Assembly: GCF_965641715.1 (NCBI RefSeq)
Contig: NZ_OZ282454.1
From: Escherichia coli
GTDB taxonomy: Bacteria; Pseudomonadota; Gammaproteobacteria; Enterobacterales; Enterobacteriaceae
Direction: 5' to 3' (one strand)
DNA length: 64,000 nucleotides
Shown here: positions 60,501-63,500 of the stretch, piece by piece
Layout of the letters: every line of letters begins with the position of its first letter
How positions within the stretch are numbered: position 1 is the first letter of the stretch
Program-made: the position numbers

Positions 60501-63500
60501 CCGGGTTCACAGGAGGCAGCAACGAGCAGCTGTTTAAATTCGGGAGGATAATTAGGGCAGCCTTTTCGCCTGCCGGGAGTCACATTTTTCTGCATATCTG
60601 ACACTTTGGTTCCCACTACTTATTTGGTGGACACCACTTTGTCTAATTCGTCAGATTCTGACCAGACGGTTCAGGCTGTACGCTTACCTACAAAAATTAC
60701 TCTCCGAATTACCTCCTGTGTCAGCGTTATCCGTGTTCGAACTTGCCGAATGGTTGCCCGGGATCGTGGGAATGAAAGAGGACGACATTACTCTCTTCAG
60801 CAGACAACCAGAACAGCAAAAAACGGAACATGACACAAACAGAAGACTTCGTAGTGGCTTTTACTGGCGCTTTTATTTTGCTTTTACCGCCCCTAGGGAT
60901 GTCCGTTCGCCAGACTTTTTCAGCCGGATGTTCATTTTAGCAGGCGATCCTGACCGTCAGCGTGAACTAAGCGAACTTCTCTTTGGCGAGCTTGAAGAAA
61001 CAGGTTTCTCCTCGCGGACATGGTTTGAACACGTTATTGATAAACTCACCATGGAAATGCTCTCCCAGGCAACTCCCGCACAGTGCCTAGGATTACTCCG
61101 CTTTATATTTATTAATGGCACAAAGATCTCCAGGTACTATCGACAGCGGGATGGAATCATGGGGCTGGAATCCGCTGGGTTGACAGAACTGGCGGACAGG
61201 CTTTTTCAACTTACACTTAATGCCACTCATAGGGGGGGATCGACTGTTTTAGCCATGCCCAGCAAGATCGGCAAACGTTCAACTGGGCCATGACGTATCT
61301 CCGTCATCTGCTCTGGCAAAATGGTCTGGCCGGTACGCGACCAGTACCACCGAATGAAAGGGTGCTAGGTAATGATGATTTAAGACATTTGTGTCAACAG
61401 GCTGCTGCATGGCTGGAAAATCCAGATAACCAAGAAGCCATTCTGGCGAACGGCGAACTGTCTGATTTGGTGTATGCCTGGCGGGAAATCAGCACCACCG
61501 AATCTGTTGCGACGTGGCTAACCTCAGTAACTGACAAGGATGATGTTTTTCTTGAGGTCTTGCTGCGGCTCCGTTATGACGGTATCCGGACTAATATTGG
61601 CCGTTATCAGGGATTGAAACTAAATACCTTGGCTGAATTCTTTGGCGGAGAAGAGTATATCCTGAAGAGATTAGATAATATTGAAGCTAAAGGGCATCTG
61701 ACTGAACTGACCAGTCAAGTGAGGAAAGCTATCGAACTCGACTCTCCAGACATTCCCCGATAGATCACTACGTCTGCTCAGGAAAGAGCAACTGAGAAAA
61801 CTGACTAAGCTAATGCAGATTGTACACTTCGCCATACACTGTCTCAAAGGCCCATAACGGGCCTTATTCTTATAAAATGAACAGAATCAGGCGCTAAACG
61901 CTTTTTCTTTATCAAAAGGAACACCTGCATACGCCAGTTCGCTCAGCAGCTTGCGTTTCCATCCACCATGTTCATCAAGCTCGGTATAAAGTACGCCTGC
62001 GAGATCGGAAGGTATTTCGATGTCACCCTTCTTGAGTACCAGTACTTTCCCGCGACCAAGTTTCCCCGCGAAATATCCGAGTTCATACAAGACATTTTGA
62101 CGTGCACGCAGTCGCGTGCTTTCAGATGCCAAGGCATTCCCGCTATCGTCAGGCGTCATCAGCACGATGGCAAAGCTGACATCTCCTGACTCCGCTTCAA
62201 ACTTCTCGATAACCGTCCTTGAGCCGTCAGGGCGTTCAGAAAGTATGATCTCCTCAAGCCCTACACGAGAGATAAAACGGGCAACAGATTGAAGGGCATC
62301 ATTATCATGGCCATGAACAATAAAAACTTTTCGGGAAACCGGACGTAGCACTGCTGGCTCAGGAGCGAACTGATTTTCCACATACAACTGGTAATCACGG
62401 ACGAATGGGACAAGTAATGATGAGGTAAACTTGCGGACAGATTCAATAACCCTGCGGTCGTAGAAAAATGTATGCCAGAAATTAAATGAAAAATTGTTAT
62501 CGATCGCCATTTTCTGTATCAGCAGCAACTTCAAGCCCAAAATATCAGCTGGTTCTTCAGGCCATTGCAGCACAGCGGAACCAGCCATGCTGGATTCAGT
62601 ATCTCCACTCCTGGCCAGAAAGGCATCAAGCTCAATATTGCGGGTCAGGCGTTCATTAACTGCCTGCAAGTTATCTGAGTTCAATAGCCGGGCCAGTTGT
62701 TTAAGAGGTTGCTGATAGTTCTGAACGTCAGCGCGCTGAAGATCGAATACGCAATTTTTAAGTGACTGAAAGATATCAATCGCCATCCTGTCCGCTCTCC
62801 TGTCTTTGTTGTTCTGCACTGTCCAGAATCTGTTGGCGCAGATTTTCTTTCATGTGTTCGATTAATGGACTGACCATAGGATTAGTGGCATAACCAGAAG
62901 CGCGTTCGTCCACCATGGAGTAGGCTTCCTGAATTGCGTTCTCAATGCTGCTAGGATCGTTAGCATCAAAACGAACATCATAACTTCCGTTTAAGGCCTC
63001 CGTTGCTCTCTCAACCTCTTTTAGCTGTTTCTGCATTTTGTCTAAACCTGTGATTTTGACGCCCATAACAACCTCCGGACTAAATGAGATGTACCAGCCT
63101 GTATAGATAGCACGCCGGAAGAATGGGGTAGTGGATATCAGTCAAATTCTCCGTAATTTCATTAAGTTCCGGTTTTACCTTTTTCGGATCTTATTAGTGT
63201 AGAAGAACGATTGTTGCGGTGAGGGGATTATTGCTTAGGAAGCAAAATTCAAAACTGACTAAGCCAGAAATAGCAACAACAAGATAAGGAAATTTTCCCC
63301 CTCAGCCCCTGCATGCCGTGAGGGGGAGCAACTACCCAACTACAGTTTTCATTTTATGATACGTCTTCACTAGGTAATACCTGTGAACTGACAGAGTCTT
63401 TACGGAGTGTATGGCGGACCTAAATTTGATCCCTGAAAACTGCCAGCGCTGCGAGGACGAAGAAAGTATTACGGCTAAAGCCGTAATACCTCCCCATCCA

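Follow-up and report, generated by a model that had tools for sequence, protein, structure and literature searches.

A small acidic protein, YuaX, paired with a TIR-domain effector on F and other IncF plasmids: a candidate mobile abortive-infection cassette

The window analyzed here, a stretch of 64,000 nucleotides from Escherichia coli (RefSeq assembly GCF_965641715.1, contig NZ_OZ282454.1), carries toward its end two overlapping genes on the minus strand, yuaX and, directly downstream, the gene for a protein that combines a helical N-terminal domain (N-domain) and a TIR domain at the C terminus (the effector) (Table 1). The first-pass annotation, in which the strand was unstated, had drawn the effector gene as an open reading frame (ORF) at 61887-62819 encoding 310 aa. 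These coordinates stand as the longest GTG-initiated reading, but the GTG at 62819 does not stand as the start: all homologues, as well as the GenBank and RefSeq annotations of identical or near-identical plasmids, share the ATG at 62786 (MAIDIF...), and an AGGAG sequence lies 10 nt upstream of it. Translation probably starts at this ATG, leaving the GTG unused. The 96-aa acidic gene with overlapping ends that had been claimed upstream was indeed found, with a pI of 4.5 for its product and an overlap of 11 nt, implying translational coupling. Both genes are under purifying selection, with ratios of nonsynonymous to synonymous substitution rates (dN/dS) of 0.02 to 0.03 for the TIR domain, 0.14 to 0.23 for the N-domain, and 0.19 for yuaX, and homologues of each number hundreds to thousands. 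A sigma-70 scan for a promoter upstream of yuaX gave no convincing match, the overall count being lower than the shuffle expectation; the approximately 340 nt 5' of yuaX held no consensus sigma-70 promoter in this simple scan and no Rfam match, and an Rfam scan of window positions 57000-64000 likewise gave no match.

Table 1. Features of the yuaX-TIR locus, its surroundings, and fused relatives (window positions, except where a locus label precedes the coordinates)
Feature	Coordinates	Strand	Remarks
yuaX	62776..63066	-	96 aa, ATG start; first gene of the operon; ORF call and F-plasmid identity
Effector gene	61887..62786	-	299 aa plus stop, 33.7 kDa; helical N-domain and PF10137 TIR domain
Overlap of yuaX stop and effector start	62776..62786	-	11 nt, ATGGCGATTGA
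N-terminal all-helical domain	62376..62786	-	aa 1-137, seven helices; proposed sensor/regulatory part and YuaX partner
CAP12/Pycsar-type TIR domain	61890..62330	-	aa 153-299; proposed NAD+ hydrolase effector
Glu235 codon	62082..62084	-	motif RARQNVLYELGYF; codon position checked
YuaX-N-domain-TIR fusion ORFs	L056 5674-6903; L059 2412-3638; L065 5659-6912; L077 5671-6900		
GC-rich hairpin	61847..61865		AAGGCCCATAACGGGCCTT; between the convergent effector gene and pifA-like remnant; consensus scan only
pifA-like 3' remnant	60718..61763	+	ORFs 60718-61293 and 61290-61763; internal frameshift near 61290; outside the module, oriented convergently to the effector gene
ISEc8 (IS66 family)	~58283..60616	-	three transposase-associated ORFs; stands in place of the pifA-like gene's 5' part; annotation of CP057088.1

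The C-terminal half of the effector was searched against profile hidden Markov models, and aa 153 to 271 significantly matched the TIR family PF10137 of Pfam over nearly the whole model (positions 1 to 118 of 119; independent E value, 6.3e-37; 126.7 bits); the motifs that had earlier been read as TIR-like are present and lie inside this match. An effector-family profile matched the Protein Data Bank (PDB) chains of Cap12 (9LMQ, 7e-10; 7UN8, 1e-6) and PycTIR (8JSJ, 9e-4). The AlphaFold2 model of the effector, with a predicted local distance difference test score (pLDDT) of 79.9, had seven helices in the N-domain (aa 1-137) and an alpha/beta fold in the C-terminal domain, and its best structural match in fold searches was the TIR domain of Cap12, a TIR-STING protein, rather than an unrelated fold. 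In the defense-system database PADLOC the top matches were all five profiles of PDC-S35 (best, 1e-64), a candidate single-gene system, which cover the TIR half; the models for TIR effectors of the cyclic oligonucleotide-based antiphage signaling system (CBASS) and for PycTIR (6e-10) ranked after these. The NCBIfam model of Cap12 (NF050171) scored 44 bits, against a cut-off of 450, and through the TIR part only. No annotated two-gene system of known, unrelated function corresponded to the pair. Glu235 was invariant in two family alignments (32 and 37 sequences), and its motif, RARQNVLxELGyF, aligned with RDNVVFEFGLF of the Cap12 and PycTIR chains; from published work on TIR NADases it is presumed to be the catalytic residue. 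Judged by its family membership, the TIR domain is probably an NAD+ hydrolase.

The N-terminal domain had been called unassigned, and its first approximately 150 aa did remain without a match in Pfam, NCBIfam, or PDB. Profile searches of PDB with the N-domain and with YuaX returned coiled-coil noise only, and all three fold searches were dominated by the TIR/flavodoxin-like domain, with no meaningful match for the helical part. By hhalign, the N-domain was unrelated to the N termini of two other classes of PF10137 proteins, and YuaX and the N-domain were unrelated to each other; comparison of the N-domain with cyclic nucleoside monophosphate (cNMP)-binding, STING, and SAVED domains in Pfam and PDB showed no similarity. 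YuaX itself (10.7 kDa; 18 Asp and Glu versus 10 Lys and Arg residues) is 100% identical, in protein and in DNA, to WP_000538310.1 of the F plasmid, named "YuaX family protein" in RefSeq. Its homologues carry the recent Pfam family PF27363 in precomputed annotation; a direct Pfam profile search of YuaX gave no YuaX-family match and only a weak match to DUF3801 (E = 0.014). A YuaX profile search yielded 1,155 clusters, of which the best 120 were all approximately 95 aa long, carried PF27363 alone, and in no case bore a functional name. AlphaFold2 predicted three helices (residues 6-25, 38-59, and 66-90; pLDDT of approximately 90) followed by a disordered acidic tail. YuaX had no match in PADLOC, NCBIfam, PHROGs, or PDB, none to helix-turn-helix, ribbon-helix-helix, or AbrB families, and no enzymatic, transmembrane, or known ligand-binding domain. 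When YuaX and the effector were modeled as one concatenated chain, pLDDT was 85.6 overall and approximately 90 for YuaX, with a predicted template modeling score (pTM) of 0.57; the N-domain, with a pLDDT of 80 to 94 alone, reached 91 to 97 in this model, a gain that we take as a weak, model-based sign of association with YuaX.

Pairing of the two genes was assessed in one genome per species at 80 loci, of which 63 covered the N-domain and 17 encoded a PF10137 domain on another N terminus. A YuaX ORF lay immediately upstream of, or was fused to, the effector at 62 of the former loci and at none of the latter (Fisher's exact test, P = 1.8e-16), which strongly supports the two-gene operon proposed from the window alone. 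At 58 of the 62 loci the end of yuaX fell within -12 to +10 nt of the effector start; the other 4 were fusions, single ORFs of approximately 409 aa running from YuaX through the N-domain to the TIR domain, in Bradyrhizobium, Rhabdaerophilum, and two alphaproteobacterial metagenome-assembled genomes (MAGs). The sole exception was a Hyphomicrobiales MAG (L060), in which no YuaX ORF was found upstream of position 6001 even with speed filters off; yuaX may truly have been lost there, the assembly may be faulty, or the effector may work alone. Among nine viral contigs of IMG/VR with full-length copies, YuaX lay upstream on eight, and the ninth ends at that edge. On one of them (L104) the effector, at 4989-5893, is split into an N-domain ORF (4989-5534) and a TIR ORF (5420-5893), probably through a frameshift or a sequencing error. 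Clustering of neighboring ORFs from 66 loci revealed no third family at more than 5 of them, apart from an antisense-ORF artifact, and no cyclase, nor was a cyclase annotated in the window or in the part of F examined. With neither a third gene nor a cyclase conserved, the pair is neither CBASS nor the pyrimidine cyclase system for antiphage resistance (Pycsar).

We next turn to the C terminus, which proved variable. A search of 1.84 billion representatives with a profile built from the N-domain alone gave 484 clusters; among the best 150 representatives, a PF10137 TIR domain was present in 42 and a different C-terminal region, 60 aa or longer, in 49, whereas YuaX was fused at the N terminus in 23 overall. 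The alternative C termini included TIR_2/SpbK-like, DUF4145, Hypoth_Ymh/TIGR02391 (HEPN), PDC-S05/VPA1262-like, and PDC-M14B-like domains, as well as many tails of approximately 115 to 135 aa ending in hydrophobic or Gly/Ala-rich segments (variants labeled P0251/L095, P0265/L096, P0291/L101, P0273, P0336/L098, and P0258); effectors with short hydrophobic tails may act on membranes. In a YuaX-fused member, the Hypoth_Ymh/TIGR02391 domain also matched the Aga_HEPN and PD-Lambda-3_B models of PADLOC. At three of five variant loci checked, namely those with a TIR_2/SpbK-like domain (L095), DUF4145 (L096), and a hydrophobic tail (L101), yuaX lay directly upstream, and at two it was absent. One variant with a hydrophobic C-terminal tail (P0348, loci L099 and L100) has a 170-aa N-terminal extension in place of YuaX; its gene comes directly downstream of two others, a Phage_holin_4_2 gene and one that is GreA/GreB-like. 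Since yuaX is kept with TIR_2, DUF4145, and hydrophobic-tail variants, YuaX tracks the N-domain and not the TIR domain, which argues against a simple TIR-specific antitoxin. The first-pass pairing of an effector with a regulator remains consistent with these results, though in need of this refinement. That YuaX and the N-domain make up a portable two-piece infection sensor, defining a multi-effector defense family of which one member resides on F and on many IncF plasmids of E. coli, Klebsiella, and Salmonella, has in our judgment slightly less than an even chance.

Full-length homologues of the effector (approximately 300 aa, approximately 50% identity) occurred in Alpha-, Beta-, and Gammaproteobacteria. 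The query region was found in 588 of 5,426 complete E. coli genomes, at 605 places (584 on plasmids and 21 on chromosomes), and 1,242 plasmids in PLSDB matched it (606 from Klebsiella, 565 from Escherichia, and 46 from Salmonella). A mobile defense-island setting had been proposed for the module, and its relatives were indeed found in prophages, in Tn7-like elements, and beside candidate systems of PADLOC. On a temperate myovirus-like contig the pair occupies a cargo position, with tail genes on one side and an integrase on the other; in Aeromonas its neighbors are HEC-03 genes on one side and a full-length PDC-S06 on the other; the Methylobacterium copy has a PD-T7-4-like gene nearby, together with a resolvase and an integrase; in Burkholderia Tn7-like genes are adjacent; and in Pseudomonas syringae it stands between a DUF4011 helicase and another protein with a PF10137 domain. 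Other TIR genes cluster beside the pair in the P. syringae group and in Serratia fonticola. The former gene (L003, 7013-7837) encodes a protein with Biotin_lipoyl and PF10137 domains that matches PDC-S35 in its TIR half only; the latter (L091, 9405-10397) adjoins the pair and encodes a TIR_2 and CarboxypepD_reg protein with a weak match to PDC-S66.

The stretch of the window at 61700-63300 was 100% identical to the IncFIA/IncFIB conjugative plasmid pRHB38-C15_2 (CP057088.1). On the F plasmid (NC_002483, 41216-45760) the order is ccdAB, pifC, and pifA, next, encoded on the opposite strand, the TIR gene and yuaX, and then RepFIB; the Salmonella Enteritidis plasmid pSE49-2444 has the same layout with an intact 747-aa allele of a PifA-like nucleoside triphosphatase (NTPase). 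In the window, what had been noted as a gene remnant is the 3' third of such a gene, cut by ISEc8; it encodes the C-terminal approximately 340 aa of a KAP P-loop NTPase that resembles PifA, and its two ORFs were 34% (residues 400-562) and 26% (residues 592-740) identical to PifA of F. A phage-exclusion-type gene has here been inactivated, and the adjoining yuaX-TIR pair is intact. The tail-to-tail layout of pifC-pifA and TIR-yuaX is kept on IncF plasmids although the PifA versions are only approximately 30% (26 to 34%) identical, and it could reflect a shared defense hotspot or functional cooperation. That the pair depends functionally on PifA was set aside as the main reading, since it occurs elsewhere without a KAP NTPase and is intact here despite the destroyed pifA, and we think cooperation of the two systems an improbable reason for their conserved pairing. 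The window effector was 91% identical to WP_000963206.1 of F, and its gene showed synonymous divergence (dS) of 0.47 to 0.67 from the F allele and of 0.13 to 0.15 from the allele of pSE49-2444. Given that yuaX is identical to that of F and the effector gene has diverged, there is a recombination junction at the boundary of the two genes or close to it, and the alleles of YuaX appear, from these sequences, to be interchangeable between effector alleles whose proteins are 9% apart. The hairpin between the convergent genes, called on the plus strand with ATTCTTATAA following it, could serve as a putative terminator of both transcripts. Short unannotated plus-strand ORFs lie at 63411-63647 and 63626-63763, past the approximately 340-nt region upstream of yuaX.

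Taken together, the domains, the conserved Glu residue, the pairing and fusions, the lack of a third gene, the effector swaps, and the mobile carriage lead us to infer an anti-phage role: the yuaX-TIR pair is read as a self-contained, mobile abortive-infection defense cassette consisting of a sensor and an effector, with a probability of roughly 0.6. YuaX would associate with the helical N-domain to form the sensing and locking part, and in the resting cell this assembly would hold the TIR domains apart. Upon infection, a phage-derived trigger, which might be one of the phage's proteins or a loss of YuaX that the phage induces, would act on YuaX or on the N-domain; the effector would then self-associate, forming composite TIR active sites around Glu235 that hydrolyze NAD+, and the infected cell would cease growth or die ahead of phage release. 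Activation by oligomerization is proposed by analogy with Cap12, TIR-SAVED, and PycTIR, and the physical contact between YuaX and the N-domain, like the kind of trigger, is likewise a conjecture of ours.

Several observations weigh against this reading. We found no paper on YuaX, PF27363, COG4271, the WP accessions, PDC-S35, or pifA together with a TIR gene. To our knowledge, F, a tool of phage research for decades, is credited only with the T7-type exclusion attributed to pifA. Some TIR domains produce signaling molecules rather than deplete NAD+. The gain in N-domain confidence in the concatenated model could stem from a different alignment and not from YuaX, and the whole-chain pTM of that model was only 0.57. 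Full-length copies were absent from 50,697 GenBank phage records and were present on just the 9 IMG/VR contigs. All phages of the BASEL collection were isolated and titrated on a K-12 host carrying F(pifA::zeoR), the authors having used whole F because they obtained no functional ectopic pifA construct (PMC8594841). That plasmid presumably retains yuaX-TIR; the BASEL phages plate on this host, so the major coliphage groups are not all stopped by the F copy expressed at its native level, although the sample is biased, because phages blocked by yuaX-TIR would have escaped isolation. In the only systematic screen of E. coli TIR proteins, 12 of 32 candidates were protective and 20 gave no protection (Wang et al. 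2024, PMC11350192).

The alternative that fares best is a toxin-antitoxin (TA) module for plasmid addiction, in which the TIR domain is an NAD+-depleting toxin and YuaX its labile antitoxin; the main role would be post-segregational killing that stabilizes IncF and other mobile elements, with phage defense absent or incidental. The gene order fits, a small acidic gene placed first, overlapping, and translationally coupled being typical of type II TA operons, and on both F and pSE49-2444 ccdAB and vapBC lie within a few kb of the pair. The plating of the BASEL phages on the F(pifA::zeoR) host fits as well, as does the unrelated two-gene TIR system SDIC1, in which the TIR protein's toxicity is alleviated by its partner. 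However, YuaX is fused in cis in many lineages, which is unfit for an antitoxin that must be degraded faster than its toxin, and it is retained when the TIR domain is swapped for TIR_2, DUF4145, HEPN, or hydrophobic tails, so that it seems not to recognize the TIR domain. Its three helices of 20 to 25 residues at a pI of 4.5 show no sign of a DNA-binding fold, and in most of the 63 species the pair is located on a large contig or a chromosome, in some cases in a prophage or defense island. We consider addiction as the main role unlikely. TA and abortive infection are not mutually exclusive, and this explanation partly overlaps the one we prefer.

A role outside conflict, with the effector as a housekeeping or regulatory nucleotide-processing enzyme of mobile elements (for example, a nucleoside 2-deoxyribosyltransferase-like hydrolase) and YuaX as its accessory subunit, has little to commend it: the best sequence and structure matches were immune TIR domains and not nucleoside 2-deoxyribosyltransferases, conflict genes typically show the patchy spread seen here over Alpha-, Beta-, and Gammaproteobacteria, with carriage by plasmids, prophages, and islands, and the HEPN, SpbK-like TIR, and hydrophobic-tail C termini are toxic effector types. 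Less probable still is an orphan effector of CBASS or Pycsar type, activated when the YuaX/N-domain module binds a cyclic nucleotide from a cyclase encoded elsewhere. The TIR domains of Cap12 in CBASS and of PycTIR in Pycsar belong to the subfamily PF10137, and the spectrum of C termini (TIR, hydrophobic tails, and nuclease-like domains) mirrors the effector repertoires of these systems; yet no cyclase or third gene is conserved in the 66 neighborhoods, the Cap12 score stays at 44 of the required 450 bits, the N-domain is unlike cNMP-binding, STING, or SAVED domains, and a mobile cassette that needs a host cyclase would fail in most recipients. A Thoeris-like arrangement, in which the TIR domain makes a signal of the cyclic ADP-ribose type on infection and YuaX is the responsive effector, is the way many bacterial two-gene TIR operons operate but is scarcely credible here, given that the 96-aa YuaX lacks an enzymatic, transmembrane, or known ligand-binding domain, that the swapping of the TIR slot for HEPN, DUF4145, and hydrophobic tails marks TIR as the effector, and that PF10137 TIRs form an NAD+-depleting effector clade, TIRs in CBASS and Pycsar contexts having been dropped as likely effectors from the Thoeris search of Yirmiya et al.

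If the abortive-infection reading is true, F, the most thoroughly studied of all plasmids, carries a second, unrecognized anti-phage system, as does a large share of the IncF plasmids of clinical importance, which would affect host range in phage therapy and phage work in F+ strains. YuaX and the N-domain would then constitute a compact new sensor architecture, and the swaps and fusions would mark its natural boundary with the effector, an aid both in finding what is sensed and in engineering; the single-gene candidate PDC-S35 would conceal at least one obligate two-gene system. Should the BASEL host keep yuaX-TIR, phages sensitive to the pair were missed at isolation. If the pair serves plasmid addiction instead, it represents a new, NAD+-depleting type of TA system on resistance and virulence plasmids.

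The pair was compared with the known systems that it most resembles. CBASS membership was rejected on the lack of a CD-NTase gene in the operon, of a STING or SAVED match in Pfam, and of a Cap12 score above the cut-off, and Pycsar membership on the lack of an adjacent pyrimidine cyclase and of an N-terminal cNMP-binding domain. The partner is not of the Thoeris kind, being a 96-aa three-helix protein without a toxic domain next to a TIR domain in a swappable slot, and the module is convergent with pifA, outside the pifA operon, and present elsewhere without a KAP NTPase, which sets it apart from Pif. Lacking these defining features, the pair is a member of none of the four. The first-pass annotation had put it forward as undescribed, and we indeed found no experimental description, but the F-plasmid genes, PF27363, and PDC-S35 were already known. 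PADLOC would probably flag the TIR gene of the window as PDC-S35, an untested candidate; its profiles match at positions of approximately 114 to 262 of 264, in the TIR half only, leaving the N-domain uncovered, and its definition is that of a single gene, without YuaX.

Among characterized proteins, Cap12 (7UN8 and 9LMQ) was the best match in sequence and fold and shares the PF10137 subfamily and the Glu motif with the effector; by analogy with published work on Cap12, NAD+ hydrolysis after sensor-driven oligomerization would be the expected likeness. Cap12, however, has a STING domain, which the window effector lacks, and the order is reversed, with the sensor N terminal and the TIR domain C terminal in the effector; the sensor of the pair is an unrelated helical domain together with a separate small protein, and there is no CD-NTase. 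PycTIR (8JSJ) is alike in joining an N-terminal sensor to a C-terminal PF10137 TIR domain, and Pycsar as a whole in that the yuaX/N-domain family also has TIR and hydrophobic-tail versions of its effector; the pair differs in having YuaX in addition and neither a cNMP-binding domain nor an adjacent pyrimidine cyclase. The systems TIR-I to TIR-IX of enterobacteria are TIR proteins whose sensing part lies outside the TIR domain, some of them with a small partner protein; they act by abortive infection in response to specific phage-protein triggers (PMC11350192). They were compared by description only, and the pair may equal one of them, TIR-I and TIR-VII being two-protein systems confined to Proteobacteria; the screen that defined them drew on genomic DNA only, and the module in E. 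coli is mostly plasmid borne (584 of 605 places). SDIC1 of Serratia is likewise a two-gene TIR system, but SDIC1A has its TIR domain at the N terminus and the partner is UBC-like, so the architecture is not homologous (bioRxiv 2024.01.28.577318). PifA and PifC, which exclude T7 on F, are convergent neighbors on F and pSE49-2444 and, as a remnant, in the window; both loci are of the phage-conflict type, the proteins are unrelated to YuaX-TIR, and the Pif genes are a neighbor and not a component. In fused or bicistronic TA phage sensors of the CapRel-SJ46 type, a small neutralizing or sensing element reportedly lies upstream of, or fused to, a toxic enzyme, and this element, not the toxin, is said to set specificity. 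No relation in sequence or fold links the pair to these; its sensor comes in two pieces, YuaX and the N-domain, and serves many unrelated toxic domains. On balance, we lean toward placing the pair among sensor-plus-TIR abortive-infection systems, with a two-piece sensor and a multi-effector family that are so far undescribed.

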